Shown here piece by piece: positions 7,676-47,467 of a stretch of 64,000 nt of DNA. The notes under the pieces are model-generated. The model had not been told where the DNA came from. It made no database searches and saw only the letters and a list, made by a program, of their open reading frames with translations. A program made the translations under genes and the position numbers. Each line of letters starts with the position of its first letter. The stretch's first letter is position 1. The stretch spans positions 3,130 to 67,129 of the forward strand of contig PCWG01000023.1 of NCBI GenBank assembly GCA_002787235.1. The letters are read 5' to 3'. The stretch comes from Nitrospinae bacterium CG11_big_fil_rev_8_21_14_0_20_45_15 (GTDB taxonomy: Bacteria; Nitrospinota; Nitrospinia; Nitrospinales; VA-1).

Positions 7676-9652
7676 TTAGTTTTTTGTTTTCTTGTAAATT
7701 CCCCATATTTGGCTTCCGCCGTCAATCAAGCACAGCCCACAAAAAAGTAGAAACAGAGGATACACGGGGGCTACGAATCGGGTCACCAATCCCGGAAACG
7801 ATGTGACCGTACAATAAGAAAGCAGTAACAATCGGCAGGAAATTGCTGTTAAAAGAATACAATTTATCATCAGCAATTCGTTGAAGGAACGAGTAGCCAC
7901 GGCACGTCCCAGGCATATAAAAAATAGCAAGAGGGCGGGCCAGGCCAGGAATGGAATCCCAATACGGTAAAGCTCTCCGATAGTTTTTAACATTTGGATG
8001 ATAAAGGGGGTCTTGTATTTTCCCGCAGAATTCAGATGCTCATTTTTGATAACATAATTGATTTCGATCTTTAGGCCATGCGATTCATAGCCTTTCATCA
8101 ATTCAGAAAATGGTATGCGCGCAATTTCCCCATTTTCTCCCAAAATAATCATCTGACATTTGTTAGTCACGCAGTTTGTTTGAAGGTCAAAGCGTATTTT
8201 GGATGCGGATGATTGCAGATTTTGAGCATCCGATCCTTTAATTTCTCGGGTTTCGATTGTGAATCTACCCTCGGGATTTGAGGGGTCTGCAATATAAACA
8301 GTTTTGATGGCTTGAACGTTGCTGATAATTTTGCCACGTATCAGCAACTGGCTTTGGTTTAGATAAATCTGAGAATGAATTATTTCCGCAAAAAACTCCG
8401 TCAATGCAAAGTTGCCTGTGCTTGATCCATAAGTGACGGAAATATCCTGCAGTGAAAATAAAAACTGGATGGCATCCCACATCTTATCAACCGTTTCTCC
8501 CACATATTTCCAGTGAAACACGGGTGCTAAAGTACTTCTGGGTGCATGGCACTCAAGCAATTTTTTGTCACAGGCTGTGTTGATCTCCTCAGCGAGGCGG
8601 GCGTAATATTTGCGTGCTTCCGGGGCAGAACGATAGTGACCTGCCAGAGACACCGCATTTCTCAAAGCAAATACAAAATGTGTCGAACGTATTTTCCCGT
8701 CACAGGGATTGATTTTGTTTGTTGTGCATCCCTCTCGAGCCCAACTCTGGCCTGAAAGACCTTCAAGGTAAGGTTCTAGTTCTCTGAATGCGGGGCTCAC
8801 TTCATATACTTTTTCCCGGGCTTCGCGGGGAATCCCTATGAAACGCTCTCCGCTATGTTTGACCCGGGAAAGTGCGCCGTATGCAGATTTAAATTCCAGT
8901 TGTTTCAATTCAACAACATCATAAACTCCGTATTTGAGATAATTGATTCCTGCAACCAAATGGAGTCCTGTATAAACAATAACGATGGGCAACAGGGCAA
9001 GCCCCGCTTCCCTCTTCAATAGAGTCCAGCTGAAACCTTTTTCCCGGCACTGGGTCCAGATCAAAACTATCAGGATGAACGGGAATATGGGTAAAATCCA
9101 AATCCCTTCCATGCGGGTGATCCAGAAGCACAATAAAACCAGACCCAAGCCAATCGCCAGGTAGATCCGGGCGGTCCATCGTTGGTTGCGACGGTTGAAC
9201 CAGATCAGGGTCATGGAAACGATGAGAACCGTCAGAGGAACGAAAAGCCCTTCACGAACCATGCGTGTTTGGTTCATGGTGTAAATCATCGGATTGAATA
9301 AATAGAAAATATAAAGAAACAGGCGGATTCCCTGTTGTCGAACATAGGGTGCAATGCTCTTGATAAACACAGCACCCGCCACCACATACAAGACCCCCTG
9401 CGCAAACAGGATTGGCGTGCCAAGCATGAAGTTAAAAGCAAGCCAAACCGAATAAAAAGGTTCTTTCAGTAAGGTCAGGTCAGAATAATCACCCAGCCAG
9501 TTTCCGCTCAGTATATTGACAGCCCCGATCAGGTACAATTGATCGTCATGAGCGGCGTGCGCCAATAATGGAACAGGCAAACCTGAAATCAGCCAAAGAT
9601 AAATGGCGGAAACCAGAAGAAAAAGAATAAAACAGGTTTTTGTGAAGGGCAT
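7676..9652 (-). CDS. Large polytopic membrane protein, possible GT-C-fold glycosyltransferase
   Basis: 658 aa, about 10 N-terminal TM segments with an acidic first-loop motif (HAAHDDQLY). A ~270-aa soluble domain is followed by C-terminal TM segments. Function is inferred only from this architecture. Confidence 0.55.
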   Translation of the reverse strand: MPFTKTCFILFLLVSAIYLWLISGLPVPLLAHAAHDDQLYLIGAVNILSGNWLGDYSDLTLLKEPFYSVWLAFNFMLGTPILFAQGVLYVVAGAVFIKSIAPYVRQQGIRLFLYIFYLFNPMIYTMNQTRMVREGLFVPLTVLIVSMTLIWFNRRNQRWTARIYLAIGLGLVLLCFWITRMEGIWILPIFPFILIVLIWTQCREKGFSWTLLKREAGLALLPIVIVYTGLHLVAGINYLKYGVYDVVELKQLEFKSAYGALSRVKHSGERFIGIPREAREKVYEVSPAFRELEPYLEGLSGQSWAREGCTTNKINPCDGKIRSTHFVFALRNAVSLAGHYRSAPEARKYYARLAEEINTACDKKLLECHAPRSTLAPVFHWKYVGETVDKMWDAIQFLFSLQDISVTYGSSTGNFALTEFFAEIIHSQIYLNQSQLLIRGKIISNVQAIKTVYIADPSNPEGRFTIETREIKGSDAQNLQSSASKIRFDLQTNCVTNKCQMIILGENGEIARIPFSELMKGYESHGLKIEINYVIKNEHLNSAGKYKTPFIIQMLKTIGELYRIGIPFLAWPALLLFFICLGRAVATRSFNELLMINCILLTAISCRLLLLSYCTVTSFPGLVTRFVAPVYPLFLLFCGLCLIDGGSQIWGIYKKTKN

Positions 9653-11921: not shown

Positions 11922-12869
11922 ATGGAAAATGTTGTCACTGGTTATCTTTCAGCCGAAGGCCATGTCGATCGTCTGGTCTCCGAATTAAAAGGCGTGGTTG
12001 CTGTTCACGACCGTCTTGTATTCACGAGTTGTCCCATTCAGAAAGTATACTGGGCGCAAAATATCTGGCTGAATCCCGTTGTTCTCAACATTGCTTCCAT
12101 CACCGATGCGGCCCGGCAATTGAAAGCGATACAAGGAAGTTGGGCTCTGTTTCCCACAGGCCTGCATCGCAGGGCGTTACTCATAGCAGAAAAGTTACCG
12201 AGGGTTCCAGCTCCCGAGCTGGTATTTCCTGCCAGTCCACCGCGGTCTCCATTGGGTTCCTGGACTTTGCTGGACACAAACGTTTTGGTTGCGTCTTCGC
12301 AATGCACGAGTACCTTGCCAAATGGAGAGGTGCTTTTCAGAGAAGACAAGGTGGGGCCGCCGAGCCGGGCCTACCTCAAGCTATGGGAGGCCTGGACGGT
12401 GATGGGCGAACGTCCGCAAGCGGATGAGTTTTGCATTGATGCGGGTGGCAGTCCCGGTGGCTGGTGTTGGGCGATTCAAAAATTGGGAGCGCATGTTCTC
12501 AGTGTGGACCGATCGCCTCTCGACAAAAAAATAGCGTGTCTGCCGGGCGTCGAGTTTCAGAAAGGATCGGCTTTTTCTTTGCAACCGGAAGATTTTGATC
12601 AGGTCGATTGGTTGTTCTCTGATGTCATCTGCTATCCTGAAAAGTTATACGATTGGGCCAGACGCTGGGTCGATTCCGGTGTTTGCAGAAAGATGATATG
12701 CACGATAAAATTTCAGGGCGAATACGATTCTAAAATTGTCAAAAAGTTTGCGGGCATTCCCAACAGTCGCGTGGTGCATCTTTACAACAACAAGAATGAG
12801 TTGACCTGGATGTTTAAGACAGAGACCAGCGAGCCGCCAGAACAGTCGGATAGAGACACCGCTTTCTGA
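11922..12869 (+). CDS. RlmM/FtsJ-like SAM-dependent rRNA 2'-O-ribose methyltransferase
   Basis: PSRAYLKLWEAW...CIDAGGSPGGWCWAIQKLGAHVLSVDRSPL...LFSDVICYPEKLYDWARRW parallels E. coli RlmM (PSRSTLKLEEAF...DLGACPGGWTYQL...MVCDMVEKPAKV). Start taken at the ATG at 11922, because the GTG at 11901 abuts the terminator T-run. Confidence 0.7.
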   Translation: MENVVTGYLSAEGHVDRLVSELKGVVAVHDRLVFTSCPIQKVYWAQNIWLNPVVLNIASITDAARQLKAIQGSWALFPTGLHRRALLIAEKLPRVPAPELVFPASPPRSPLGSWTLLDTNVLVASSQCTSTLPNGEVLFREDKVGPPSRAYLKLWEAWTVMGERPQADEFCIDAGGSPGGWCWAIQKLGAHVLSVDRSPLDKKIACLPGVEFQKGSAFSLQPEDFDQVDWLFSDVICYPEKLYDWARRWVDSGVCRKMICTIKFQGEYDSKIVKKFAGIPNSRVVHLYNNKNELTWMFKTETSEPPEQSDRDTAF

Positions 12870-13020
12870 TATGGGAACTGCTCAAAATAGTTTTTTCGAT
12901 GGGGAAAAAATGCTATGGTTTCTCAGCGATCATCGCACGCTTATACAGAGAACGTGGATTCATCCCCATGACACCGTTTTGAGATGAGTCGTCATTTTAC
13001 GCAATTAATTTCGGAGAGTT

Positions 13021-13890
13021 ATGAATTTTCAAGACGTCATATTCAAGTTGGAACACTATTGGTCATCTCGGCAATGTGCCATCCATCAGCCTTACGATAT
13101 CGAAGTGGGAGCAGGTACCTTTAATCCCGCCACTTTTTTTCGCGTTCTGGGGCCAGAGCCCTACCGGGCCGCTTATGTTGAGCCCTCACGCCGACCGACC
13201 GACGGACGTTATGGAGAAAATCCGAATCGACTGCAACATTATTATCAGTATCAGGTGATCCTCAAACCTTCGCCAAAAGACGTGCAGGAACAGTATCTGG
13301 GCAGTCTCGTCGCATTGGGAATCGATCCCATGAAACACGATATTCGTTTTGTGGAAGACGATTGGGAGTCGCCCACGCTCGGAGCCTGGGGGCTGGGTTG
13401 GGAAGTGTGGCTGGACGGAATGGAGATCACCCAGTTCACTTATTTCCAGCAAGTCGGGAGCATTGAGCTGAACCCGGTGGCGGTAGAATTGACCTATGGT
13501 TTGGAGCGGATCACCATGTACCTGCAAAATGTGGACAACGTTTACGATTTGCAGTGGAACGATACCCTCAAGTATGGCGACGTGCATCTGGAAACGGAAA
13601 AACAATTTTCCGCCTTTAATTTTGAAGCGGCAGGAAAAGAAAGGTTGTTCCAATGGTTTGATATGTACGAAGCCGAGGCCAACGATCTGCTTGAAAAAGA
13701 CCTGGTGCTTCCCGCCTACGACTTCACCCTGAAATGCTCCCATGCCTTCAACCTGCTCGATGCCCGTGGTGCGATCAGCGTTACCGAACGCACCGGGTTC
13801 ATAGGAAGAGTACGCAAACTGGCCCGTGCCTGCGCCGAAGGCTATGTACGCCAGCGCGAAGAAATGGGCCATCCCCTGCTTAAAAAATAA
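13021..13890 (+). CDS. glyQ: Glycine--tRNA ligase alpha subunit
   Basis: [47 protein letters not shown]...[21 protein letters not shown] is near-identical to the canonical GlyQ pattern. Confidence 0.97.
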
Positions 13891-15562: not shown

Positions 15563-15871
15563 TTAAATATGGGTGCGCACTTCCAGCCCGTCCATTTCAT
15601 CCGTTAAGGTGATTTGGCAGGCGAGCCGAACATTGGGATTGGATTTCAAGGATTTCGCCAGAGTTTTTTCTTCAATTTCATTGCGGGGGCCCACATTGCC
15701 TGCAACGATTTCTACTTTGCAGGAAGTACACAATCCACGCCCACGGCAATTCAGAATTTTCTTGATATGCGGGTAGATACTCAGCGTATTTTTGATTGCC
15801 GCAGAACGCAAAGTCTCACCGGGTTCGGCCTGAATGCTTCGATTTTGAGTTACAAATTTAATGTTTAACAT
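15563..15871 (-). CDS. 2Fe-2S ferredoxin
   Basis: Cys pattern C42-x5-C48-x2-C51...C85 (CRGRGLCTSC...RLACQ) in a 102-aa protein. Confidence 0.7.
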   Translation of the reverse strand: MLNIKFVTQNRSIQAEPGETLRSAAIKNTLSIYPHIKKILNCRGRGLCTSCKVEIVAGNVGPRNEIEEKTLAKSLKSNPNVRLACQITLTDEMDGLEVRTHI

Positions 15872-16191
15872 GCTTCAATTTGGATGAGATTTCTTAATTG
15901 GCCTTTTCCCCAATATCCGTGAAAAGCACTTCCCACGGTGGAGCAGGCATTGGTCATATGCACCAGTTGCATCTCGCCACCTCCAGCCTTTAAAGCACCT
16001 ACCTGGCTGTAGGGGGGGATGGTCCCACCGCAGTTGACGCAAACTGTCGAGTACTTTTCGCAAAGCTCCAACAGGCAAGGTTTGCAAACGACGGGGTCAA
16101 AGAGAAATATTTCCTGCTCGTCGTACTCGGCGTGAGTCGGAAGCGATTCTACAGCTTGACGACATTCCTGACAATGGAATTGTGTGCTCAT
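15865..16191 (-). CDS. Cys-rich zinc-ribbon-like hypothetical protein
   Basis: 108 aa with three CxxC pairs (CQEC, CKPC, CVNC) plus three further Cys. Its stop overlaps the ferredoxin start by 7 nt. Confidence 0.55.
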   Translation of the reverse strand: MSTQFHCQECRQAVESLPTHAEYDEQEIFLFDPVVCKPCLLELCEKYSTVCVNCGGTIPPYSQVGALKAGGGEMQLVHMTNACSTVGSAFHGYWGKGQLRNLIQIEAC

Positions 16192-16257
16192 TTTTTATTT
16201 GTCCGCATGAAGGTGAATTCTGTTCGATGAAACCGTTTAAATTATTTCAAAGAACGA

Positions 16258-17283
16258 TCAACTGACGCAAACTTTTTTCATATTCTCAAAATCGTCGAGG
16301 ATGGCACCGGCACCCTTTACAATACTGAGGAGAGGGTCTTCCGGTGTGTAAACTTTCAGAGTGGTTTTTTCTTCCAGCAGTTTGTCCAGACCTCGGATCA
16401 GTGCCCCTCCGCCTGTCAGGTAGATTCCGTTAGAGTGAATATCGGCAGAAAGTTCGGGAGGTGTTTTTTCCAGGGCACGCAGGACCGCACTGGTGATTGT
16501 TGCGAGAGACTCACTCATCGCTTCACGAATTTCGGTATCGCCAATGACGATGGATGTGGGAATACCCGTTTTGACGTTGAGTCCTTTTACCTCGGTGGTT
16601 ATTGGTTGATCCAGCTTGTAGGCACTGCCGATTGCGATTTTGACACGCTCAGCTTCAAAAATACCGATGTTGAGGTGGTGTTTCAAGCGCATGTGCCGAA
16701 CGATGGATTCGTCGATTTCATCCCCCGCGAGGCGAATGGATTCGCCGTATGCAATGGCAGAAAGTGAAATGACCGCAACATCCGAAGTGCCTCCTCCAAT
16801 ATCGATGACCATATTGCCCTCAGGCTTATGCACGGGGATACCCACGCCAATAGCCGCGGCCATAGGCTCCTCTACAAGATTCACCCGTTTGGCTCCAGCC
16901 ATGAGAGCCGCATCAATGACGGCCTTTTTTTCCACCTGAGTGATGCAGGTTGGAACGCCGATGACCATATGTGTGCTCACCAGAAACGTACGCGGCAAAG
17001 TCTTCTTGATGAAATACTGGATCATCTTGTTGGTGATGTCAAAGTCGGCGATGACACCATCCTTCATGGGGCGGATGGCCTCCAGTTTGGAATGAGTTCT
17101 GCCGTACATTTTCTTTGCTTCAAGCCCAACGGCCTCAACTTGTCCCTCTGAGTTGATAGCGACAACAGAAGGCTCGTCGAGAACAATGCCTTTATTGTGG
17201 ACGTAGACGAGGGTGTTTGCCGTACCCAGGTCCATGGCCAGATTTGCTGTGAACAAATTTGAAATAGCTTTGAATAGTCCCAT
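16258..17283 (-). CDS. mreB: Actin-like rod-shape protein MreB (non-canonical context)
   Basis: DLGTANTLVY, IRPMKDGVIADF, EEPMAAAIG, DIGGGTSDVAVISL and LTGGGALIRGLDKLL match MreB throughout. No mreC/mreD lie downstream. Confidence 0.92.
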   Translation of the reverse strand: MGLFKAISNLFTANLAMDLGTANTLVYVHNKGIVLDEPSVVAINSEGQVEAVGLEAKKMYGRTHSKLEAIRPMKDGVIADFDITNKMIQYFIKKTLPRTFLVSTHMVIGVPTCITQVEKKAVIDAALMAGAKRVNLVEEPMAAAIGVGIPVHKPEGNMVIDIGGGTSDVAVISLSAIAYGESIRLAGDEIDESIVRHMRLKHHLNIGIFEAERVKIAIGSAYKLDQPITTEVKGLNVKTGIPTSIVIGDTEIREAMSESLATITSAVLRALEKTPPELSADIHSNGIYLTGGGALIRGLDKLLEEKTTLKVYTPEDPLLSIVKGAGAILDDFENMKKVCVS

Positions 17284-18710
17284 CAGGTAGTTTCTGCAAG
17301 AGTTTTTGAGGCTCGTCCATAGGCGAGACCTGTTAGTTCCGTCAGGTTCTTTCCATCGGCAGGAAAGGCTGACAAGCCCATTTCGACTCTCAGATCAAGA
17401 GCGATGGACATTGAGTAAAATCGGTTGTTGTCGAAAACATGCCGGAGTCTTCCTTCTAAAGACAAGACTTCTTCCCGGGTTCTGTCCAACAAGACAAGCA
17501 AAAAAGCATTGTCTGAATATCTGAAAATGAATTTCGGTGAAGGTGCGGAGCGCGATAATAATGACATCAATTGACGAAGCAGTTGATCGGCGCAATCGGC
17601 ACCGTGGTTTTCATAAATGGAGGTCAGTTTGGGCAATCGCATTATTAAAAAGAAAACGGGTTTGTTGTCCAGGAAAAATTCACGCTGGACAGACTCCCGG
17701 TTTTCGACAAGAAACCGATAGTTGGGTGCGCCGGTAACGATATCCACACTGTTTTGGTATTGAGCTTTTTGTCGAGTTTCGGCGCAGTAGAGCGCAATCC
17801 CGGCAGAAGCCCCGATGATTCCCAGACGATCCACATCATCATGACCGATAGAGCGAGGCTCTCGATTCGCACAAAGCAGAACGCCACGCAGTTGTTCTTT
17901 TATCACCAGGGGAATAGCGGCATACGACATGAAGGGCTCATGATCTTCAATTTCGTTGAACAAAGCCAGTTTGCGTTGGGCGGCATTTTCAATGAGGACA
18001 GAAGTTTTGGTTTTGGCACAGGAACCGACGAGTCCTTTCCCCTCTTCGATAAAGAGTTCTCCCAAATCCTGAATGAAACCGCGGTGACCGCGAACCCTTC
18101 CTGGGAAACGACCTTCCTCAAATTCCACGACAGCGATTGCGTCGCATGTAAATATTTCAGCAGGGATTTGAAGCAGTCGTTGAGAAAGATCCTTGAATTG
18201 TGGTGATTCTGCAACGAAACGACTGTAAGTTCCTAGCTCGCGAAAGAAAGGCCAGACTTTTCCTCCACCCCGATTTTCCTCGTCTTCACGATGCATTTGC
18301 ACAGCAATTTGCTCTGTGAAGCCGGTGATGATTTTTAGTAATTTGGGAGAAAAATTATAACTCTGTTTGCTGTCCAACGATAAAACTCCCAGCACTTTGC
18401 CGTTTTCATCAATCACAGGCACCGCGATAAAACTTTTTAAATTTTCTTCAGATTTATAAATTTTTAATTTGGCGAAATCGTCTTTAAAATTTTCAATGAC
18501 AACAGCGTCCCCTGTCAAAGCCGCTTTGCCAATAGGGCTATGTCCCATTGGGATGCTCACGGCTTCATTAAACTTATGGCTCAAGGTCATAAATGTATGA
18601 GGAGTCAAAGCATTTGTTTTTGGATCCAAACGAAACAAGGCAGAGGTGTAGGCATCAGCTACATTGCCTGCAAGATGAACCAAATGGGTGATGATCTCGG
18701 GAGTTTTCAT
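17283..18710 (-). CDS. GAF-GAF signalling protein with a degenerate GGDEF domain
   Basis: Two GAF-like regions (~aa 15-140 and 165-310). C-terminal GGDEF fold (DIVTGAPNYRF...) with the signature replaced by RYSDNAF. The stop (TGA) shares its A with the mreB ATG (TGATG at 17281-17285). Confidence 0.8.
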   Translation of the reverse strand: MKTPEIITHLVHLAGNVADAYTSALFRLDPKTNALTPHTFMTLSHKFNEAVSIPMGHSPIGKAALTGDAVVIENFKDDFAKLKIYKSEENLKSFIAVPVIDENGKVLGVLSLDSKQSYNFSPKLLKIITGFTEQIAVQMHREDEENRGGGKVWPFFRELGTYSRFVAESPQFKDLSQRLLQIPAEIFTCDAIAVVEFEEGRFPGRVRGHRGFIQDLGELFIEEGKGLVGSCAKTKTSVLIENAAQRKLALFNEIEDHEPFMSYAAIPLVIKEQLRGVLLCANREPRSIGHDDVDRLGIIGASAGIALYCAETRQKAQYQNSVDIVTGAPNYRFLVENRESVQREFFLDNKPVFFLIMRLPKLTSIYENHGADCADQLLRQLMSLLSRSAPSPKFIFRYSDNAFLLVLLDRTREEVLSLEGRLRHVFDNNRFYSMSIALDLRVEMGLSAFPADGKNLTELTGLAYGRASKTLAETT

Positions 18711-18791
18711 TCAATCGGGGAATGATTGTTAGAAAGTGATTAACGAGTTCTGTGTAGAATTTTGATTAAATAATAAGATCATGCGAATGCG

Positions 18792-19250
18792 TTAAAGTTG
18801 CCCTCTTTTTTTTAACATTTCCCGGTATTTCTGAATCGCTTCTTTGCCGACAATTTTTGCTACCGTCTGGTAAACAATGGCTGATACCTCTCCAGATTCT
18901 TCAACTCTTACAGCCTGACAGTTGAGGACCTTGCGCTCACCGGTTGTAGGGTGCCGGAACAAAACCTGGAGCAGGTCGCCCTCAATGATCGTGACGTTGG
19001 AGGAAAGCACCAGACTGTTTATAGACATCTCTATGATATCGACTTTATGAGTTTGATCGTAAAATTCTTTTTCACGTTCAATTTCAAGCAAGCCGGAGAG
19101 ACGAGTTTTAGCCCGCTTGAATTTCCTTTTCCCAAGGGATTTTTGATCTTCCTTCGCGATCAGTTGATTGAGATGGTTTTTTATCCTTAGCAGGTCTTCC
19201 ATAGGCAAATTTTCTATGGAGGAAAGGATTTCTTGAAGCATGTGCGGCAA
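18792..19250 (-). CDS. PilZ-like domain protein (partly degenerate motifs)
   Basis: 152 aa. KRKFKR (RxxxR-type) at aa 41-46, and E-x-S-x-x-S (EMSINS) 28 residues later where PilZ has D/N-x-S-x-x-G. Confidence 0.5.
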   Translation of the reverse strand: MPHMLQEILSSIENLPMEDLLRIKNHLNQLIAKEDQKSLGKRKFKRAKTRLSGLLEIEREKEFYDQTHKVDIIEMSINSLVLSSNVTIIEGDLLQVLFRHPTTGERKVLNCQAVRVEESGEVSAIVYQTVAKIVGKEAIQKYREMLKKRGQL

Positions 19251-19562
19251 TCGAAAAAAGTTTCAAGATAACATTGACAGTTCGTAACCCGGCGAATATG
19301 CAGTAAGCATCGGGCAATCAGGAAAAAACCAGAACAAATCACTGAGGGTAAATCCAGTTTGACGGGATAGGAAATCCCTCAAGTCAAGCCCCTGTATACT
19401 AAATGGGGAGAATGGCACTGTCAATCTTAATAATGGATTGTTTTTTTAGATCATCCTCGCGTACTATTTAAAAACCGGTGGGCATTGTCAGGTTTGAAGA
19501 CTTTGTGAGAGAATTCATGGGAAGCCGTTTGAAAAATTAATTGAATTAACTGTTTTAATTTC

Positions 19563-20111: not shown

Positions 20112-20212
20112 AACGTCATTTTTAACTATTAGTACAAGCTTTTGACGATGTTTTTGAAGTCCTTTAGGTCAAAAGTAAAACCGGTCATTAAGGATTGAAA
20201 CAGGATACAGAA

Positions 20213-22105
20213 ATGAATCGATGGCTTAACTTCTCCAGCTTCAGCGTCCCCTTTCGAAAATGTTTGTTTGCGGTGCCAATTGTAAGTCTGCTTATGGTCA
20301 CTTATTCCAGTCAATCGGTGAGTGCTATGGACGAAAAGCCTGCAGCGATGGCAAAAGAAGAATCTTCAGACGGGAAGATGATGTCTGAAGAGGAAGCGAA
20401 AGAAGGTGCTGATGCTGAAGGTGAAACAGATATTGCCTTGCAGGCGGCGGCAGAGCATGAGGCTTTGTTTGCTGAGAGTAGCTATCCTTCTGCGGCTACT
20501 TGTGGGACCTGTCATCCCAAGCACTATCAGGAGTGGGCGGTGTCTTCTCACTCGTACGCCCAATTGAGCCCTGTTTATTTGTCTCTCAGTAGTGAGATCA
20601 ATGAATTGAGCAGTGGCACGAACGGTGACTTTTGCTTGCGTTGTCACAGTCCTATCGGAGCTAATCTGGGTGAGTCTCCTTTCATGTCGAACCTGGATCG
20701 ACATCCTACCTCACGCGAAGGCATTACTTGTGTCGTGTGTCACCGGTTGAACAAAAATTACAATAAGCGAAGCGGTCGGCTTGCTTTGGTGAAGGGTGAT
20801 CTTCTTCAGCCTGTTTTTGGGCCCAAGGGTAATGAAGAGCTGGCGCGCGTGTTAAAGGATGATAAGTTTCGTGTTGTGACCGAGAAAGGGAAGCCTGGCA
20901 GAAAGATTCATACCGAAATTAAAAAATTCCCGTCCTTGTCAGACCCGATATTTTGTGCAACTTGTCACGACGTTACTTTGTTGAACGGGTTCCGTTTAGA
21001 GGAAGCTTTCAGTGAATATCGGCTTTCCCCGGCGGCAAAAAATGGAGTGTCCTGTCAAGACTGTCATATGGGTAAGGTTCAGGGGGTTGCTTCTGGCTAT
21101 GATGAGGGGCCTGGGGCAGTTGTTGGCGGCAGGGAGACCGCGGTAAGAAAAATTACCAGTCATTTTTTTGCAGGACCCGACTACTCTGTTATTCATCCCG
21201 GTATTTTCCCTCATAATGCAGAAGCGCAGGAAATGGCTACGATGAGAGAATGGCTCCAGTTTGATCATAAGGCGGGTTGGGGAACAGATGAGTTTGAGGA
21301 TAATGTTCCTGAGGGAACCAAGTTTCCTGAAAAATGGAATTCGATTGACGATAGATATGACGCCCGCGAAATTCTCAAGGTTCAGTTTGAGCGATTGGCT
21401 TATGCCCGAAAGATGCGTCTGGAAGTCTTGCGTAACGGTTACTCGCTTGACGAGGTGGTGGTCGAAGAGGTGGGGCAAGATGGTATAGAGTTTAAAGTCC
21501 GGGTTTCCAATAAGACGGATGGTCATAACGTGCCCACAGGGTTTACGGGTGAGCGTTTGGTCTGGTTGCATGTAACGGTTAGAGATGCCAAGGGTGAGCT
21601 TGTGTTTGAGTCGGGTGACCTTGATCCCAATGGCGACGTTCGAGATCATGAATCCTCTTATGTTCATACAGGTACCCTGCCGTTGGATGAGCAATTGTTT
21701 GATATCCGATCCCGGTTTTTAGTTCAAAACCTTCGTGGCGGCGAGAGGGAGAGAATTATTCCCATTCCCTACCCTGTTACAACCATTCCCTTTGTTCGCC
21801 CCTCAATTCAGTCTTTGATTTTGACAGGTGAGCCTGGGACGGAGCGAAACCATCGTAGGGGTATCGAGCCGTTGGGTCATCGTTGGGCGGAATATGAAGT
21901 CGAAGCAGAGGAGTTGGTGGGGCATGAAGGGCCTTATAAATTGCGCGTTGAGTTTAAGGCTTCCATGGCACCGGCTAACCTGGTTGGAGCGATCCAGAAG
22001 CGTGGATTTGATTATGCGATGAGTGCCCGCGAGGTGGTCGATGGCGTGGCTGCGGGGCATGAAGTTTTGTGGGAAAAAGAGCTCGAGCTTGGTAATTCAA
22101 AATAA
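20213..22105 (+). CDS. Secreted pentahaem c-type cytochrome with a large haem-free C-terminal domain
   Basis: Five CxxCH (CGTCH, CLRCH, CVVCH, CATCH, CQDCH) in the first ~300 aa. Signal peptide ...VSLLMVTYSSQSVSA. The C-terminal ~330 aa carry no haem motifs (contains DGHNVPTGFTGER). The start is ATG 20213 or 20195. Confidence 0.85.
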   Translation: MNRWLNFSSFSVPFRKCLFAVPIVSLLMVTYSSQSVSAMDEKPAAMAKEESSDGKMMSEEEAKEGADAEGETDIALQAAAEHEALFAESSYPSAATCGTCHPKHYQEWAVSSHSYAQLSPVYLSLSSEINELSSGTNGDFCLRCHSPIGANLGESPFMSNLDRHPTSREGITCVVCHRLNKNYNKRSGRLALVKGDLLQPVFGPKGNEELARVLKDDKFRVVTEKGKPGRKIHTEIKKFPSLSDPIFCATCHDVTLLNGFRLEEAFSEYRLSPAAKNGVSCQDCHMGKVQGVASGYDEGPGAVVGGRETAVRKITSHFFAGPDYSVIHPGIFPHNAEAQEMATMREWLQFDHKAGWGTDEFEDNVPEGTKFPEKWNSIDDRYDAREILKVQFERLAYARKMRLEVLRNGYSLDEVVVEEVGQDGIEFKVRVSNKTDGHNVPTGFTGERLVWLHVTVRDAKGELVFESGDLDPNGDVRDHESSYVHTGTLPLDEQLFDIRSRFLVQNLRGGERERIIPIPYPVTTIPFVRPSIQSLILTGEPGTERNHRRGIEPLGHRWAEYEVEAEELVGHEGPYKLRVEFKASMAPANLVGAIQKRGFDYAMSAREVVDGVAAGHEVLWEKELELGNSK

Positions 22106-22173
22106 TGCAGATAGGGTTGGCGTTACGTTGCCTCTGTGGAAGATTTTTTACTAATTGTCATTGGAGAAAGTGG

Positions 22174-23613
22174 ATGTCGGTAAGCAAACGTTTTGGAAAC
22201 CGATCTGGATCATTGGGTGGAATTTGTCAGCTGATTTTTGCAGGAATTTTCTTTTTCGCGACCGCTGTACCGGCATTTGCTGAAGGATTGTATCCTCTGG
22301 GTGATGTAGAGGGTATTCCCCGATTTTCCGATGAGCATATTCAGCTACGTCCTCCTTCTGACACGGGGACGCGCCCTCCTTTGATTGTGGAAAAGGGAGA
22401 TCTTTTTTTAGGTGTGGGCAATCTTGATGAAGGTTTCACCACTCCGTGGGGTGCTGTATGGCAACCTCAATTGTGGGTTTTTGGGACCATGCGAAGTTCT
22501 CTGCAAATGTTTGATAACGGTGTTGCGAGCACTGCTTCCGAATGGCGTAACCGGTTTGATCTGTATGCTAACCTGCAATTGACCGGTACTGAGAAAATTC
22601 TTATCGGTGTTCGGCCTCTTGATGTCAATCGACCGGATGGTTTTTCGGGTGTTTCACTCAACGACAGTCGGGATGGCGGAGGGACAGAAAACTTCAACAT
22701 GGCTATCCGAACCTTGTTTTTTGAGGGCGATTTTGGAAGTCTTTTCCCCGGGTTGGATTCGGGTGGATATAAGTGGACGGATTACGGATTTGCGGTGGGT
22801 CGCCAGTTGTTGCAATTCCAGGAAGGTATTTTGTTGAACGATGAGGTGGATGCCTTGGGTCTGGTGCGTAATAACATTCGATTGCCTGGGGTCTCAAACC
22901 TGCGAAGTTCTTTTGTCTGGGGCTGGAATGAGTTGGGCAGAAGTAATGCCCGGGTCAACGATGCGGCGCATATGTTTGGTTTTTTTAACTCAGCCGATTT
23001 GTATAAAAGTTCTGTGAATTTAGACTTGATTGTAGTTGCTGATAGCCAGAAGGATGGGGATGGTGTTTATGTGGGTGCTTCTACCATTCAACGTATTGGG
23101 CATTACAATACGACATTCCGTATCAACAGCTCGATTGCCGAGGGCAAGGATAACGCAAAGGTAGGCACTGGAGTGCTGTTGTCCTCAGAAGTTTCGTGGA
23201 CTCCGAAATCTTCAGATGATATTGTTTATATCAATACCTTTGTTGCTTCCGGGGATTTTACTCAGGCGGGCAGAGAGCCTGTCGTTGGCGGACCTCTCGG
23301 TGCATTGGGAATTATGTTTGCTTCTCCAAGTTTGGGTAATTTTGGATCAGAATTGAGCAGTGCTGCCAGTGATGTCGCGGGTTTCGCGGTTGGTTATGAA
23401 GCTTTCTGGATGAATCACAGAAGAAGTCTGACGATGGAAATTGCGGGACGTAAAGATACAGGTGGTGGCGGGTTTGATGACATGGCTGTCGGTTTTGAGT
23501 ATCGACATCGCTTGGCGCAGAGAATTCAGTGGCAGTTTGATGCTCACTATTCGTTGCAGGAGCGACGTACGGATGGCTTTGGTCTGAGATCTGAAATCGC
23601 ATACCAGTTTTAA
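22174..23613 (+). CDS. Outer-membrane beta-barrel (porin-like) protein
   Basis: Signal peptide MSVSKRFGNRSGSLGGICQLIFAGIFFFATAVPAFA from ATG 22174 (GGAG upstream). Alternating hydrophobic/polar strands, G/S/N-rich loops, and a C-terminal ...RSEIAYQF with terminal Phe typical of BAM substrates. Confidence 0.65.
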   Translation: MSVSKRFGNRSGSLGGICQLIFAGIFFFATAVPAFAEGLYPLGDVEGIPRFSDEHIQLRPPSDTGTRPPLIVEKGDLFLGVGNLDEGFTTPWGAVWQPQLWVFGTMRSSLQMFDNGVASTASEWRNRFDLYANLQLTGTEKILIGVRPLDVNRPDGFSGVSLNDSRDGGGTENFNMAIRTLFFEGDFGSLFPGLDSGGYKWTDYGFAVGRQLLQFQEGILLNDEVDALGLVRNNIRLPGVSNLRSSFVWGWNELGRSNARVNDAAHMFGFFNSADLYKSSVNLDLIVVADSQKDGDGVYVGASTIQRIGHYNTTFRINSSIAEGKDNAKVGTGVLLSSEVSWTPKSSDDIVYINTFVASGDFTQAGREPVVGGPLGALGIMFASPSLGNFGSELSSAASDVAGFAVGYEAFWMNHRRSLTMEIAGRKDTGGGGFDDMAVGFEYRHRLAQRIQWQFDAHYSLQERRTDGFGLRSEIAYQF

Positions 23614-23807
23614 TTTGGACGCATTGTTTTTCAGAATTTCTTGTTTGTCGGTTTGAGGTGTAAGTTTTCAAGAGCGGGAGACAGGCATTTGAAAATCCCT
23701 CTTCTTCTTACTAATAAAGAGAAGAGTGCGTTGTAGTAAAAGTCAAAGGCTCGACGGTGTCGTCGAACTTCATGCGAGGGCGATTTTTTTCATGTAGAGG
23801 GGATATT

Positions 23808-24779
23808 ATGAAACAGAGAAGTTTGTTTTTAAAATTGCTTTTCCTGAATTTTCTATTACTGGCTGGCATTATCGGCTTATCAGGTTGGGTTGCATCTGCC
23901 GATGCGAATCCATTTAACAAGGGAGCCAAGTTATGCGAAGAGTGTCACGAGGCTGAATTTAAAATTTGGAAAAATACCAAACATTTTGAATCTTTTCGAA
24001 CTGTCCATCGCGAGCCGAAGGATAAAAGCAAACCTTCACCCAAAAAGATTCTGGAAGCGGTGGAAGGTGAGAAAAGAATGAAGAGAAACAAAGCATGTTC
24101 TCTTTGTCATTATACCCTTGAGCAAAAAGACGCAGATGACAAGCCCGATGCGGGGTCAGGCACTTCCTGTGAAAGCTGTCATGGTCCATCCTCTGAATGG
24201 TTGGAAATTCACGATAATTACGGTGGAAAAGATGTGAAGCGAGATCAGGAGTCTGCGGATCATAAGGTTAAGAGAATTGCTGACTCCAAGGCAAAGGGGT
24301 TGATCTGGCCTTCCATGAAGTACGAAGTGGCTGAAAATTGCATGGTTTGTCATGGTTTGGCGCATCCTGAATTGACTGCGGATGAGTTGGCCAAGATGTT
24401 GGGTGCTGGTCATCCGATCAATCCAGACTTTGAATTGGTCAAGTATTCTCAAGGTTCCGTGCGGCATCGATACTATCCACCTAACATTAAAGAAAATGCG
24501 GAAATGACTCCAGCAGAGTTGTCGCGCGAGTACGTTGTTGGTCAGGCCGCAGCTTTGGTTTCTGCAACAAATGCCATGTCTAAGTCAGAAGATCCGAAAT
24601 ACAAGGCGGCCCAGGAACAACGAGTCGCTAACGCAAAGGCAGGATTGAGTGGTGTGCCGGAGGCAGCAGGTCTGCTGGCGGCACCAACTCGTGAAAATGC
24701 ACTCAAGTTTGCGGCTGATATCGCGGGTAAGGATCTTTCGGGTGTTGTTAAGTTGCCTGCAAAATCTGATTACAAGTAA
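23808..24779 (+). CDS. Secreted tetrahaem c-type cytochrome
   Basis: Signal peptide MKQRSLFLKLLFLNFLLLAGIIGLSGWVASADA. Four CxxCH (CEECH, CSLCH, CESCH, CMVCH). GAGG lies 8 nt upstream of ATG 23808. Confidence 0.85.
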   Translation: MKQRSLFLKLLFLNFLLLAGIIGLSGWVASADANPFNKGAKLCEECHEAEFKIWKNTKHFESFRTVHREPKDKSKPSPKKILEAVEGEKRMKRNKACSLCHYTLEQKDADDKPDAGSGTSCESCHGPSSEWLEIHDNYGGKDVKRDQESADHKVKRIADSKAKGLIWPSMKYEVAENCMVCHGLAHPELTADELAKMLGAGHPINPDFELVKYSQGSVRHRYYPPNIKENAEMTPAELSREYVVGQAAALVSATNAMSKSEDPKYKAAQEQRVANAKAGLSGVPEAAGLLAAPTRENALKFAADIAGKDLSGVVKLPAKSDYK

Positions 24780-24923
24780 GTCGAATGTTAGCGTGGAAAA
24801 CTTTTTTATGTGCTGCTAAAGGCGAGTGCATTTAAAGGCAATAATGAATTTCTGAAATGCTCGCGTTTGAACTTGTGAATATATATTTACGTTGATATAG
24901 CGTTATTTAATGTATGATTTAAA

Positions 24924-24965
24924 AGAAAGCCCTCCTGATAAGGAGGGCTTTCTTCCTCTTTTTTG
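24924..24965 (+). terminator. Rho-independent terminator
   Basis: Perfect 13-bp stem AGAAAGCCCTCCT / AGGAGGGCTTTCT, GATA loop, T-rich tail. Confidence 0.85.
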
Positions 24966-25103
24966 AAAAGATGTGCGTGCTTCTTGATTTGCGATAAGTG
25001 AGCCCGGATATGAGATTGCATGGAGGAGAAGTTCCGAATCATTTGCAGGATGTCTTTGTTCTTGATGAACTTGGATATACTTTAAGAAAGGCTTGATGTA
25101 AAA

Positions 25104-26786
25104 ATGGCCACACTTTCCCGCCTAAAACGTTGGGATACTCCCTTCAGCCCGGATATGACAGATGAGGAGGTTCAACGTCTTCTCGAAGTTAAAGAAATAG
25201 CCGAAATAGACCGCGATAAATTCCCCGTCAGTACCCCCCTTGAAGGAATTCTTAAAAACGATGCTCGCACGGTGCGTTATGAAGCGGGTGATATTGTTAT
25301 ACGTGAAGGGGACTATGGTAATTCTGCATTTTTAATTCTGAGCGGAGATTTGCGTGTGGTTCTTTCCCCGGGTCTGCCTGATGAGATGCTGGGACGTAAA
25401 AAAATTCGCAAGAAAAGCTTTTTTGAAGCACTGTCTCAGCTCTGGAAAAAAAGTATTATTCCTGAAGTCCGTGATACGGAGCGCTACAAGGATCGTTCTT
25501 TACGAAAAACGAGCGATTCTGGAGTGGCTCAAGTGTTTCTGCAGGATGTTCCCGCCGTGCTGGATTCGAATAAAACGGCAGTTCTGCATCCCGGTGCATT
25601 GTTTGGGGAGCTTGCGGCATTGGGCAGATTGCCTCGAACTTCATCGGTATTTGCTGAAACTGCGGCGACGGTTTTGGAGATTCGTTGGCAGGGATTGCGG
25701 GAGTTGAGGAAATTTGATGAAGGCTGGCGGAGTGCAATTGATAAACGCTACAGAGAAAATGCGTTGAATGCCTATTTGAGTGCCACTGAGCTTTTTTCTC
25801 ATCTGGACGATACTAAGTTGCAAGCCGTGGCCGATAGTGCCCTGTTTGAGACTCATGGAAAGTTTGACTGGCATGTGACCTACAATCAAATGAAGGATAT
25901 GGACAACGCCAGCGTCATTAAGGAAGAACCCGTGATTGCTCGCGAAGGTGACTACCCGGATGGGTTGTTGATGATCCGCGCTGGCTTCGCCCGTGTCTCC
26001 GTGCAAAAGGGGAACGGACGTCAAACTTTGACGTATTTAAAAGCCGGGGATTATTACGGTGACGATGAACTTTACAGAGCCTGGAAGGGTGAAAATAATG
26101 TCACGCTCAAGGTGACTATCACCGCCCTGGGTTACGTGGACGTGTTGCGTGTTCCGTCATTTTCTATAGAAGAACACTTATTTGCTCATTGGGAAGATAA
26201 AAACAAAACCGATTTCGAGCCATCGAAAGCGAATCTTTTTGATCAGACTCTTGCCGATGGTGCTTTGCGCGAGTGGGCGGTTCAGGAGCGATTTATCAAC
26301 GGAACCCAAACGATGATGATCGATTTGGATCGTTGTGTTCGCTGTGATGATTGTGTTCGTGCCTGCTCCGACACGCATCAGGGGAATCCCCGTTTCATTC
26401 GTCATGGAAAAACATTCGATCACTGGATGGTTGCCAACGCATGTATGCATTGTGCCGATCCTGTATGTATGATCGGTTGTCCTACGGGTGCGATCCATCG
26501 CGATTTGTCGGGTGGAATGGTTATCATCAACGACGACACATGCATTGGTTGCGAAACCTGCGCCAACTCTTGTCCCTATTCGAACATCAGGATGGCTGAA
26601 ATCCGGGATGTTGATGGCCGCCCTGTTGTGGACCCGGAAAATCAGAAACCCATTATTAAAGCGACGAAATGTGATTTGTGTGCAGGGCAGAGAACCGGAC
26701 CTGCCTGTGTGTTTGCCTGCCCGCAAGCGGCTGTTAAGCGCGTGGATTTTCGAGAGGCATTTTCAGGTGCCTTTGAGGAGAGTTAA
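25104..26786 (+). CDS. Cytoplasmic cyclic-nucleotide-binding (2 domains) / 4x[4Fe-4S] ferredoxin (DmsB/NrfC/HybA-like) fusion protein
   Basis: cNMP phosphate-binding cassette FGELAALGRLPRTSSVFA at aa 167-184. The second CAP-like domain lacks the cassette. Four cluster motifs: CVRCDDCVRAC, CMHCADPVCMIGCP, CIGCETCANSCP and CDLCAGQRTGPACVFACP. No signal or Tat peptide. Confidence 0.85.
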   Translation: MATLSRLKRWDTPFSPDMTDEEVQRLLEVKEIAEIDRDKFPVSTPLEGILKNDARTVRYEAGDIVIREGDYGNSAFLILSGDLRVVLSPGLPDEMLGRKKIRKKSFFEALSQLWKKSIIPEVRDTERYKDRSLRKTSDSGVAQVFLQDVPAVLDSNKTAVLHPGALFGELAALGRLPRTSSVFAETAATVLEIRWQGLRELRKFDEGWRSAIDKRYRENALNAYLSATELFSHLDDTKLQAVADSALFETHGKFDWHVTYNQMKDMDNASVIKEEPVIAREGDYPDGLLMIRAGFARVSVQKGNGRQTLTYLKAGDYYGDDELYRAWKGENNVTLKVTITALGYVDVLRVPSFSIEEHLFAHWEDKNKTDFEPSKANLFDQTLADGALREWAVQERFINGTQTMMIDLDRCVRCDDCVRACSDTHQGNPRFIRHGKTFDHWMVANACMHCADPVCMIGCPTGAIHRDLSGGMVIINDDTCIGCETCANSCPYSNIRMAEIRDVDGRPVVDPENQKPIIKATKCDLCAGQRTGPACVFACPQAAVKRVDFREAFSGAFEES

Positions 26787-26792
26787 CAGGCT

Positions 26793-46774: not shown

Positions 46775-47467
46775 CTATTCAGGTGATGTGTTGTTTTTTA
46801 GCCACGCAAAAGAATAATGGATCCAGAGCAGGAGAGTGGCTCCCAGCAGTTCGGCCATTTCTTCGAGGGTGGAAAATATTTTGAACTGGCTCCAGGACGA
46901 AGCGTCGAGATAGTTTTCGGCTCCGAGGATTTTGGCTTGCATGGTTTCCAGACCGGCGGCCAGGGCAAAAAGGCCGACAAGCACCAGACCGGCAACGAAC
47001 AGGTGAGGGTGGGCGCGGAATTGCAGGTAATAAAAAACACTGAGAGCACCTCCCACGAGTAGGATGATGGGTGAGAAGATCAGCGTCCAGAGCAAGGCCC
47101 CACCTTCTTTGGAAACCAGAAAATAGTCGCGCAAGTTATTTCCTCCCGAGCTTTCCATGAGCCAGCGCGTCGCGGTTTCGTGGAACTGTCCCGTTTCATC
47201 GATCGACATCAATAGCATGAGTCCCGTGACCAGTAACCACCCGCGATTATAAGGCGTCTGCTTGCCTTGAAAATAGCAGTGCAGTGCCGCTATCGCCGCA
47301 AGGGTGAATTTGAAGCTGGAATACCAGGTAGGCAGATTGCCTTCCTGACCGAGGTCCACTCTTTCGCCCAATAGAGGATGGTTTGCAAACAGCAGGTATA
47401 GGGCGAGGATGAAAAAGTCGGCGCAGATGAACCCGATCAATATTTTTTTAGGCTCTATGGGGAACAT
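46775..47467 (-). CDS. Hypothetical polytopic membrane protein
   Basis: 230 aa with ~6 TM segments. Its start shares 1 nt with the stop of the upstream sulfatase-fold gene. Confidence 0.55.
   Translation of the reverse strand: MFPIEPKKILIGFICADFFILALYLLFANHPLLGERVDLGQEGNLPTWYSSFKFTLAAIAALHCYFQGKQTPYNRGWLLVTGLMLLMSIDETGQFHETATRWLMESSGGNNLRDYFLVSKEGGALLWTLIFSPIILLVGGALSVFYYLQFRAHPHLFVAGLVLVGLFALAAGLETMQAKILGAENYLDASSWSQFKIFSTLEEMAELLGATLLLWIHYSFAWLKNNTSPE

Follow-up and report, generated by a model that had tools for sequence, protein, structure and literature searches.

A MreB paralogue encoded directly behind a tandem-GAF protein with a degenerate GGDEF-like domain in Nitrospinota and other bacterial lineages

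MreB holds the central place in organising the rod shape of bacteria; to our knowledge, few direct regulators of this protein have been described, and the routes by which signals reach it are largely unknown. Several bacteria possess MreB paralogues with specialised roles, i.e., Mbl and MreBH in Bacillus subtilis, MreB1 and MreB2 in Bdellovibrio, and MreB1 to MreB5 in Spiroplasma, and we know of none that has been described with a dedicated partner carrying two GAF domains in tandem. Such a pair is found in a member of the Nitrospinota, which are the main marine nitrite oxidisers. It is situated in a stretch of 64,000 nucleotides (positions 3,130 to 67,129 of contig PCWG01000023.1, Nitrospinae bacterium CG11_big_fil_rev_8_21_14_0_20_45_15, assembly GCA_002787235.1), which was analysed as a whole and is called the window here. 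On its minus strand, genes for a PilZ-like protein, for a protein of two GAF domains and a degenerate GGDEF-like domain (in the following the GAF protein), for a MreB (in the following MreB2), for a small cysteine-rich (Cys-rich) protein, and for a [2Fe-2S] ferredoxin follow each other (Table 1). An earlier prediction made from the sequence of the window (in the following the original prediction) had pointed to this string, remarking that MreB normally heads mreBCD and that mreC and mreD are lacking here, and proposing a control of cell-wall patterning by small molecules or redox state. The analysis presented here finds the GAF protein and MreB2 to be a conserved gene pair, and MreB2 to be a paralogue of the canonical MreB.

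Like the known MreB paralogues, the MreBs linked to the GAF protein are full-length additional copies beside a housekeeping MreB, with their ATPase motifs intact. They differ from the known ones in being only about 50% identical to canonical MreB, in standing outside the canonical clade of Proteobacteria and Nitrospinota, in occurring in several phyla, and in coming with a dedicated tandem-GAF partner gene. Concerning this partner, a GAF domain is likewise followed by a GGDEF domain without enzymatic activity, acting as a non-catalytic module, in PelD of Pseudomonas aeruginosa, a membrane-anchored receptor of cyclic di-GMP (c-di-GMP). However, PelD binds c-di-GMP at an RxxD I-site that it has kept, whereas the GAF protein possesses PSPK or other residues than RxxD at this site in every lineage and starts directly with its first GAF domain (GAF-A); furthermore, the partner of PelD is a polysaccharide synthase and not a MreB.

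The combination of a PilZ protein, a degenerate protein of a c-di-GMP family and an ATP-driven assembly machine is also found in the FimX-PilZ-PilB system of Xanthomonas, where FimX, which is a degenerate GGDEF-EAL protein, controls a motor ATPase together with a PilZ protein. Yet FimX senses c-di-GMP by its EAL domain and its PilZ partner does not bind c-di-GMP, whereas the string of the window has no EAL domain and the orthologues of its PilZ protein keep the motifs RxxxR and [D/N/E]xSxxG. Its target would be an actin-like filament, and PilZ is missing at about one quarter of the loci in the class Nitrospinia. CsrD of Escherichia coli, known for its role in the turnover of small RNAs, is likewise a degenerate GGDEF-EAL protein, and its gene lies directly 5' of mreB-mreC-mreD on the same strand (NC_000913.3, 3397500-3402500). 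In contrast to the GAF protein, CsrD is devoid of GAF domains and shows no sign of being homologous to the GAF-A family, and a gap of about 300 nt separates its gene from a canonical mreBCD; the adjacency of csrD and mreBCD is probably a coincidence. The overall build of the GAF protein, with GAF-A, a helix, the second GAF domain (GAF-B), a helix and an output domain in a model computed with AlphaFold2 (AF2), is that of tandem-GAF sensor-effectors such as CyaB2, PDE2/5/6 and PadC, from which it differs in an output domain that is catalytically dead; an NKFDE-type motif for cyclic nucleotides was not found on reading its sequence. All the parts of the string belong to known families (MreB, GAF, GGDEF fold, PilZ, Fer2), whereas a MreB subfamily that possesses a sensor partner of its own looks to be undescribed in the literature searched. 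No account of a pairing of GAF/GGDEF protein and MreB, or of MreB in Nitrospinota, was found in that literature, which agrees with the novelty supposed in the original prediction.

The association of the two genes is solid. The GAF protein of the window is found identically, and within the same gene order, on 16 metagenome contigs, and 38 full-length homologues exhibit 35-95% identity to it, those with a named source being from Nitrospinae or Nitrospina. The bacterium of the window is accordingly a member of the Nitrospinaceae. The loci of three divergent homologues (37-41% identity) have different outer flanks and the same order of PilZ, GAF protein, MreB and a protein of about 110 amino acids (aa), followed by Fer2 in two of the three. 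The whole string is also carried by the closed Candidatus Nitrohelix vancouverensis genome (CP048620.1, 321525-334952). An alignment of the GAF proteins, scanned against one genome per species, yielded 79 loci, and tblastn searches were made with six proteins of the window; the loci were split into 50 from Nitrospinia and 31 others, and ratios of presence count only loci with room on the relevant side. MreB follows directly 3' of the GAF gene in all 45 such loci of Nitrospinia and in all 27 of the others, and the arrangement is therefore far beyond chance. Among the other loci are some named as Thermodesulfobacteriota, Desulfarculales, Desulfomonilaceae, 'Nitrospirae' or deep Nitrospinota, and some named just 'bacterium'; their GAF proteins either are 25-30% identical over the full length or match in the GAF region only. 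The neighbours of the pair at these distant loci are mutually unrelated (inositol monophosphatase; DUF167 and DivIVA; PCMT; radical SAM; EamA; MscS; UvrC; a MoxR/VWA/PMT block; CdaA) and MreB still follows, and for this reason GAF protein and MreB constitute the conserved core as a unit of two genes, which is shared by no fewer than five deep lineages (Nitrospinota, Thermodesulfobacteriota and phyla without a name). Within Nitrospinia, a set of five genes recurs across the class, coding for PilZ, the GAF protein with its dead GGDEF, MreB, a protein of nine cysteines, and ferredoxin.

At the junction in the window (ACC TGATG GGA), the GAF gene ends in a stop codon that has one base in common with the start codon of mreB2. 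This junction had been read correctly in the original prediction, and the translational coupling of a GAF sensor with dead GGDEF to MreB that was built on it is real and conserved more widely than had been guessed: in Nitrospinia, an overlap of the two genes (ATGA, TGATG or 8 nt) exists at 39 of 45 loci, and the gap between them amounts to 3-31 nt in other lineages and to 130-330 nt in Thermodesulfobacteriota.

A reciprocal scan started from MreB2, with which metagenome contigs were searched and the neighbours checked. The GAF gene is situated 5' of MreB2 of the Nitrospinia type in 28 of 34 loci and the Cys-rich gene 3' of it in 44 of 46, and the MreBs of at most 55% identity are without a GAF gene, save for one pair of the Thermodesulfobacteriota type. 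Six marine contigs of a Nitrospinia sub-lineage (L118, L120, L123, L124, L126 and L130) have lost the genes for PilZ and the GAF protein and have kept those for MreB2, the Cys-rich protein and ferredoxin. The MreB2 without GAF gene departs from the conserved consensus of Nitrospinia at five positions only, one of which is Ala176. Ala occupies this position in 94% of Nitrospinia and in 29 of 30 other MreBs linked to a GAF gene; all canonical MreBs have Gly there, to which the sub-lineage that lacks the GAF gene has reverted. The strand after the phosphate-2 loop may hence be of relevance to the partnership of GAF protein and MreB2, but this is only a lead.

Some individual loci show peculiarities of their own. 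On L130 (3095-3988), about 890 nt 5' of mreB2 are without any open reading frame (ORF) of at least 80 aa. On the Nitrospinales chromosome OZ242182.1 (L061, 9409-10720), the PilZ gene is split and the GAF gene is truncated to about 150-210 aa, with mreB2 and the Cys-rich gene being intact; this could be decay of the sensor genes or an effect of indel errors in long reads. In a Desulfomonilaceae locus (L088, 8496-11383), the GAF gene shares its first 4 nt with a gene for a fusion of CdaA (c-di-AMP synthase, DAC domain) and YbbR, so that in this lineage a different cyclic-dinucleotide enzyme adjoins the pair. A PMT-type gene is found directly 5' of the GAF gene in L066 (8360-9862), and L074 has an unscanned ORF of the same size there. 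Glycosyltransferases of the GT-C fold thus stand beside the pair in two unrelated lineages (L066, and the window together with its closest relative L010), which may hint at envelope glycosylation or be due to chance. In L073 (12991-14217) and related loci of Thermodesulfobacteriota, divIVA, yggU (DUF167) and a small unscanned ORF are convergent to GAF gene, mreB2 and inositol monophosphatase, and the group of divIVA and yggU is kept among closely related loci. In deep Nitrospinota (L071, L080 and L081; in the latter at 12483-13838), genes for a protein-isoaspartate methyltransferase and for a CxxCxxCC protein (PF03692) come after the pair, the latter protein being a putative Zn/Fe-binding neighbour that is rich in cysteine and has no sequence relation to the nine-cysteine protein of Nitrospinia.

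Concerning the GAF protein, Pfam finds GAF, GAF and GGDEF in it (PF00990, 50.5 bits vs. a cut-off of 23.8), and the AF2 model (pLDDT 85.9) exhibits long helices between GAF-A and GAF-B and between GAF-B and the GGDEF-like domain. Its best matches by Foldseek are 5llw, 1ykd, 3lfv and 3ibj, i.e., tandem-GAF CyaB2 and PDE2/5/6 as well as phytochrome-linked PadC. The GGDEF-like fold corresponds to the GGDEF domain of TM1788 with a TM-score of 0.78-0.80 and a root mean square deviation of 2.4-2.5 Å (Foldseek). In the alignment to this active cyclase, RYGGDEF is replaced by RYSDNAF, the RxxD I-site by PSPK, and the first metal-binding Asp (the 'vDl' site) by Arg. The position of the GGDEF motif reads [RK][YL]S[DE]xxF in 17 out of 17 aligned orthologues, and the motif is degenerate in every lineage, with SDNAF, SETCF, YGDRF, LGHRF and GSGTW as variants; at the I-site position, most Nitrospinia possess PSPK (P392 and K393 are invariant in the 17 aligned orthologues), and the others have different residues that do not form RxxD.

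Judged by these residues, the GGDEF-like domain is enzymatically dead, as had been supposed, and it is not a cyclase, nor is it a c-di-GMP receptor of the classical kind. The 'c-di-GMP-style' signalling attributed to the string by the original prediction is correspondingly weak, as this domain is without A-site and I-site in any lineage, the PilZ protein is accessory, and the EAL gene of the window is not syntenic; only the accessory PilZ protein supports a link to c-di-GMP. The Thermodesulfobacteriota version is without the GGDEF-like domain; the GAF proteins there have a length of only about 290-340 aa, and the one of these scanned by Pfam (L068, 307 aa) consists of GAF-GAF only. The residues common to the five lineages lie almost all in GAF-A (N16, V17, D19, A20, T22, A24 and L25, through to D113, K115, Y118 and F120; the family motif is NV[AT]DAxTxAL), for which reason GAF-A is the defining part of the protein and probably also its working part. 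A DNA-binding, enzymatic or other output domain was found neither by Pfam nor by Foldseek, and Pfam and NCBIfam contain no curated model for the GAF-A family; in the sources, the protein is named only 'GAF domain-containing' or 'diguanylate cyclase-like'. A relationship of GAF-B to the nitrate sensor NreA was considered and rejected, since 31.5 bits vs. a cut-off of 175 represent generic GAF similarity.

MreB2 of the window matches the curated MreB models well above their thresholds (MreB_Mbl, PF06723, 422.8 bits vs. 27; TIGR00904, 423.2 bits vs. 365.75; NF010539, 442.9 bits vs. 293) and aligns over its full length to the crystal structures of MreB from Thermotoga maritima and Caulobacter crescentus (327 bits). 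The phosphate-1, phosphate-2 and adenosine motifs are kept (DLGTANT, EEPMAAAIG, DIGGGT, GGGA/S), and nucleotide-binding motifs are present in the consensus of every GAF-linked MreB group. The amphipathic N-terminus reaches a hydrophobic moment of 0.65-0.87, vs. 0.58 in MreB of E. coli. Because of the intact nucleotide motifs and the amphipathic N-terminus, MreB2 is expected to be a membrane-bound, polymerising ATPase.

Nonetheless, the MreB of the string is a paralogue and stands outside the canonical clade. It is 49.6% identical to MreB of E. coli and 55.6% to a canonical MreB of Nitrospinales, the identity between these two canonical proteins being 60%, and the two MreBs of one related genome are about 52% identical to each other. 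Canonical MreBs of Nitrospinota share 68-82% among themselves and 59% with E. coli MreB, whereas all five GAF-linked groups are 48-52% identical to the latter. In a neighbour-joining tree, the split of canonical and GAF-linked MreBs is found in 192 of 200 bootstraps; with C. crescentus and T. maritima added, canonical Nitrospinota group with E. coli and Caulobacter in a clade that excludes every GAF-linked MreB in 281 of 300, T. maritima MreB being unplaced in this tree. By the identities and the trees, the GAF-linked MreBs are not recent duplicates. A first list of positions that would be typical of MreB2 was biased by the canonical sequences of Nitrospinota; R34N was discarded as a signature, since the MreBs of T. 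maritima and Caulobacter also possess Asn there, as presumably does that of E. coli.

The absence of mreC and mreD, correctly noted before, extends over the whole 64 kb, where mreC, mreD and pbp2 were found neither by Pfam scans of the ORFs nor by tblastn with MreC, MreD and PBP2 of Nitrospinaceae. The second mreB with mreCD was found in relatives. A Nitrospinales contig of 3,250,952 bp contains the module (L007, L038) at 2.01-2.03 Mb and a canonical mreB-mreC-mreD-pbp2 at 2.80 Mb, i.e., 0.79 Mb apart. The 340-aa MreB of this canonical cluster (P0276) was found by a profile of canonical Nitrospinota MreBs and follows glmU, glmS and a ppiD-like (SurA_N/rotamase) gene. In a genome with both the module and the canonical cluster, the GAF protein is 37% and MreB2 75% identical to those of the window. 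A metagenome-assembled genome (MAG) of Nitrospinota (L085) contains mreB, mreC, mreD, pdxJ, the gene for the GAF protein and a second mreB within one stretch of 20 kb, and another MAG, of Nitrospinaceae, carries the same canonical mreB-mreC-mreD-pbp2 cluster. Further Nitrospinota MAGs possess a ppiD-like gene followed by mreB-mreC-mreD-pbp2(-rodA), and the canonical clusters at P0124 and P0116 belong to MAGs other than the carriers of the module. With MreC of L085 as query, MreC was found in Nitrospinota MAGs, and none of the top 120 matches lies on the large Nitrospinales contigs. One MreC match with mreCD and without mreB (P0139) was left aside, as it is 77% identical to a sequence named SAR324 (P0154) and probably belongs to that group. 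That the MreB of the string would head a missing mreBCD is consequently not supported, for relatives keep both the string and an intact mreB-mreC-mreD-pbp2 elsewhere; since this canonical cluster is separate and the MreB of the string stands outside the canonical clade, a direct control of cell-wall patterning is not the default reading either.

In Nitrospinia, three further proteins accompany the pair. The PilZ gene of the window probably starts in truth at the ATG at 19241, the corresponding Met4 being invariant among orthologues. The Pfam model PilZ (PF07238) is matched by 15 of 17 orthologues (best E-value 1.2e-9), and RxxxR (R42, R46) is invariant, as is S76 in [D/N/E]xSxxG, a motif that begins with E, D or N; the earlier call of a PilZ-like protein is thus supported by the orthologues, though not by the protein of the window itself (see below). 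Among the loci of Nitrospinia with room upstream, 35 of 47 have the PilZ gene, and in the remaining quarter tRNA genes are situated directly 5' of the GAF gene.

The Cys-rich protein belongs to no Pfam or NCBIfam family. Nine cysteines (C7, C10, C36, C39, C44, C51, C54, C83 and C108, with three CxxC pairs) and H78 are invariant in it. It is rare, with 37 representatives matched among 1.84 billion proteins. For its earlier designation as a Zn-ribbon protein, there are only matches to the 'double zinc ribbon' DZR (PF12773) below the cut-off (11 of 17 orthologues, best E-value 2.3e-4; 11.7 bits vs. 27.3 for the protein of the window). With its gene adjoining that of MreB2 in 43 of 43 genome loci of Nitrospinia, it is the tightest partner of MreB2 within this class; when distant relatives of it were compared with all loci, none was near a GAF-MreB pair outside Nitrospinia. 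The ferredoxin is a member of Fer2 (PF00111, 37.1 bits vs. a cut-off of 21) with C42, C48, C51 and C85 (Cx5Cx2C...C) conserved in 25 aligned orthologues. Its gene is present in 34 of the 36 loci of Nitrospinia with room and, at 23 of the 38 loci that possess both genes, overlaps the Cys-rich gene or abuts it, so that the redox partners named in the original prediction have proved to be conserved within the class. In L007, L008, L164 and most Nitrospinaceae loci, the ferredoxin gene is followed on its 3' side by a conserved block of Prok-JAB, a 4Fe-4S ferredoxin, a NifU-like protein, peroxiredoxin/Redoxin, FGE-sulfatase-DsbD_TM and DUF4410, whereas the lineage of the window has a gene for a GT87 membrane protein in place of this block.

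A complete stand-alone EAL protein is indeed encoded where it had been predicted (35233-36006, minus strand; 160.6 bits), with intact EAL, DDFGAGY, EGVE and QG motifs and with a match of 270 bits to PDB 6ifq, a 'cyclic di nucleotide phosphodiesterase'. Its membership in the module was considered and rejected: the gene is 16 kb away, and in L007, L008 and Ca. Nitrohelix it is not found beside the string. In the window, it stands next to a block of dapF-dapA-dapB, a molybdopterin oxidoreductase and an FGE-sulfatase, which is rearranged with respect to other Nitrospinia.

Taking these observations together, we consider the chances about even that the module works as a whole, the GAF protein gating or tethering a dedicated MreB2 that is separate from basal elongation. 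Like other tandem-GAF sensors, the GAF protein would most likely form dimers with long coiled-coil linkers, and it would sense a small ligand via the highly conserved GAF-A. It may contact MreB2 directly and gate, nucleate or tether membrane-bound filaments. In all likelihood it would neither make nor bind c-di-GMP, its GGDEF-like domain perhaps being kept only as a protein scaffold or an output surface. In Nitrospinia, the nine-cysteine protein, as a putative metal-binding protein, and the usual ferredoxin would probably give a redox input or form a metal-dependent adaptor, and the PilZ protein probably adds an input of c-di-GMP in most lineages, since its orthologues keep the motifs for c-di-GMP binding. 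As canonical mreBCD-pbp2 is encoded apart in relatives, MreB2 would most likely run a separate, condition-dependent process (shape change, envelope remodelling or positioning) and not basal rod elongation. According to a published study (PMC8026999), the shape of Nitrospinae cells varies with growth stage and environment, which makes a condition-dependent change of shape a reasonable candidate.

Several points weigh against this interpretation. The mechanism has been drawn from gene linkage, and this linkage is not absolute: at 6 of the 34 metagenome loci of MreB2 there is no GAF gene, and MreB2 can therefore work without the GAF protein. The joint change of GAF gene and residue 176 (Ala to Gly) represents a single evolutionary event. 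The trees are neighbour-joining trees of about 330 columns with few canonical sequences from outside Nitrospinota, and a strict monophyly of the GAF-linked MreBs would depend on the root, with T. maritima unplaced. Furthermore, the canonical mreBCD cluster is known from relatives, the window covering only part of its own genome. Concerning the accessory proteins, the PilZ-like protein of the window has no Pfam match even at E = 1, and it shares with L010 a Ser at position 79, where at least 90% of the orthologues have Gly; the AF2 single-sequence model of the Cys-rich protein (pLDDT 39.8) is unusable.

MreB2 might instead be an auxiliary isoform within the Rod complex, which co-polymerises or co-localises with canonical MreB, such that the GAF signal would modulate elongation indirectly. 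Mbl and MreBH of B. subtilis co-polymerise or co-localise with MreB in the Rod complex, and partly redundant MreB isoforms set a precedent. The polymer-forming fold, the nucleotide motifs and the amphipathic N-terminus kept in MreB2 would suit such a role, as would the variable shape described in PMC8026999. However, with an identity of about 50% and a separation that predates the parting of Proteobacteria and Nitrospinota, the divergence is much deeper than that among the Bacillus isoforms, and apart from the proximity in L085, the module is never accompanied by mreCD, pbp2 or rodA and has private partners. We therefore regard the role of an auxiliary isoform as rather unlikely.

The two genes might also be co-transcribed without any interaction of their products, the GAF protein being an independent sensor or regulator. 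Such independence would accord with the six MreB2 loci without GAF gene and with the wide gap in Thermodesulfobacteriota. Against these stand the 72 out of 72 loci with room that keep the pair, in at least five deep lineages with unrelated neighbours, and the overlap of stop and start in most Nitrospinia. In addition, no domain was found by which the GAF protein could exert an output of its own on DNA or as an enzyme, and where the GAF gene has been lost, a residue that is a signature of MreB2 has reverted. Independent action of the GAF protein thus appears clearly unlikely.

A further possibility concerns Nitrospinia, where MreB2, the Cys-rich protein and ferredoxin might constitute a system for redox or metal handling, in which the actin-fold ATPase would act as a chaperone or activase and not as a filament, tied to the downstream genes of the JAB, Fer4, NifU, peroxiredoxin and DsbD type. 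The link of Cys-rich protein and MreB2 is in fact the tightest of the class (43 of 43 and 44 of 46), translational coupling of the ferredoxin and Cys-rich genes is frequent, and the block from Prok-JAB to FGE-sulfatase/DsbD_TM follows in most Nitrospinaceae. Yet MreB2 is a full-length MreB by its match to the crystal structures and has no cluster-binding cysteines like those of activases, the pair does without Cys-rich protein and ferredoxin in four other lineages, and the lineage of the window is without the block from JAB to DsbD, which makes a redox activase very unlikely. That the MreB of the string is the main MreB of the cell and puts wall patterning under the control of c-di-GMP or redox state is hardly credible: its scores above the curated thresholds, its complete ATPase motifs, the lack of mreC and mreD in the window, and a second mreB that is proven in relatives only would allow for it, whereas the relatives with the string also have the canonical mreB-mreC-mreD-pbp2 elsewhere, the protein shares only about 52% identity with the canonical copy and stands outside its clade, and the GGDEF-like domain is devoid of A-site and I-site.

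The reading of a dedicated MreB2 gated or tethered by the GAF protein may be extended to a ligand-gated actin, i.e., a widespread and hitherto unrecognised MreB subfamily whose polymerisation or membrane placement would be switched directly by a bound, dedicated tandem-GAF sensor, independently of the elongation machinery, with Nitrospinia adding redox (nine-cysteine protein, ferredoxin) and c-di-GMP (PilZ) inputs. We advance this extension tentatively, as a possibility with less than even chances. If true, it could underlie the environment-dependent changes of shape in the nitrite-oxidising Nitrospinia, and the module constitutes a concrete candidate for the shape plasticity that has been reported for Nitrospinota. 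A MreB subfamily with its own sensor in several phyla would furthermore be a natural test system for the control of an actin-like filament by signals. Three families are without a curated model, i.e., the MreB-associated GAF-A protein, the MreB2 clade and the rare nine-cysteine protein, and annotations such as 'rod shape-determining protein MreB' and 'diguanylate cyclase' are misleading for these genes.

Table 1. Features of the gene string in the window (positions within the 64,000 nucleotides)
Feature	Position	Strand	Remark
PilZ-domain protein, ORF of 152 aa	18792-19250	minus	N-terminal helix followed by PilZ barrel; accessory member
GAF-GAF-GGDEF protein, 475 aa	17283-18710	minus	tandem-GAF sensor with dead GGDEF-like C-terminal domain
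MreB2, 341 aa	16258-17283	minus	MreB paralogue; start overlaps the stop of the GAF gene
Cys-rich protein, 108 aa	15865-16191	minus	9 invariant Cys; no curated family
[2Fe-2S] ferredoxin, 102 aa	15563-15871	minus	Pfam Fer2
GT87 / MptA_B-type GT-C membrane glycosyltransferase, 539 aa	13904-15523	minus	lineage-specific neighbour
Candidate sigma-70-type promoter	19396-19424	minus	upstream of the PilZ gene; TTGACA-17-TAGTAT, 10/12 matches; weak

Gene order, gaps and overlaps are those of the original prediction: by the coordinates of the ORFs, the gaps amount to 81 nt between the PilZ and GAF genes, to 66 nt between the MreB2 and Cys-rich genes, and to 39 nt between the ferredoxin and GT87 genes, and the Cys-rich and ferredoxin genes share 7 nt. 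The GT-C-like membrane protein announced there at the end of the string is matched by Pfam GT87 (PF09594) with 38 bits vs. a cut-off of 25, and a precomputed annotation adds MptA_B_family. Its gene accompanies the string in the window's own contigs and in the closest relative L010, whereas GT87 is missing from all other loci; as it is confined to this lineage, it was rejected as a core member, and its membership in the system is doubtful. Scans of the region for promoters and terminators gave no more sites than in shuffled sequence, which is why the promoter listed in Table 1 is only a candidate. A scan of the region with Rfam found tRNAs only and no riboswitch or other RNA, and the defence models of PADLOC had 0 matches to the six proteins of the module.

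Elsewhere in the window, a cluster on the plus strand (20195-30792), situated between tRNA genes and dapF-dapA-dapB, codes for multihaem cytochromes of the c554 type (636, 340 and 641 aa), for a cNMP-binding/4Fe-4S protein (560 aa), for an FNR-like FAD/NAD/2Fe-2S reductase (423 aa), and for two proteins of 502 and 267 aa without Pfam match. Within 10 kb of the module, neither L007 nor L008 showed this cluster; in both, the dap block adjoins the region of the module. ORFs without Pfam match are found in the window at 7676-9652 (minus strand, 658 aa), 22105-23613 (plus strand, 502 aa), 46775-47467 (minus strand, 230 aa), 50797-52512 (plus strand, 571 aa) and 59668-60228 (minus strand, 186 aa).

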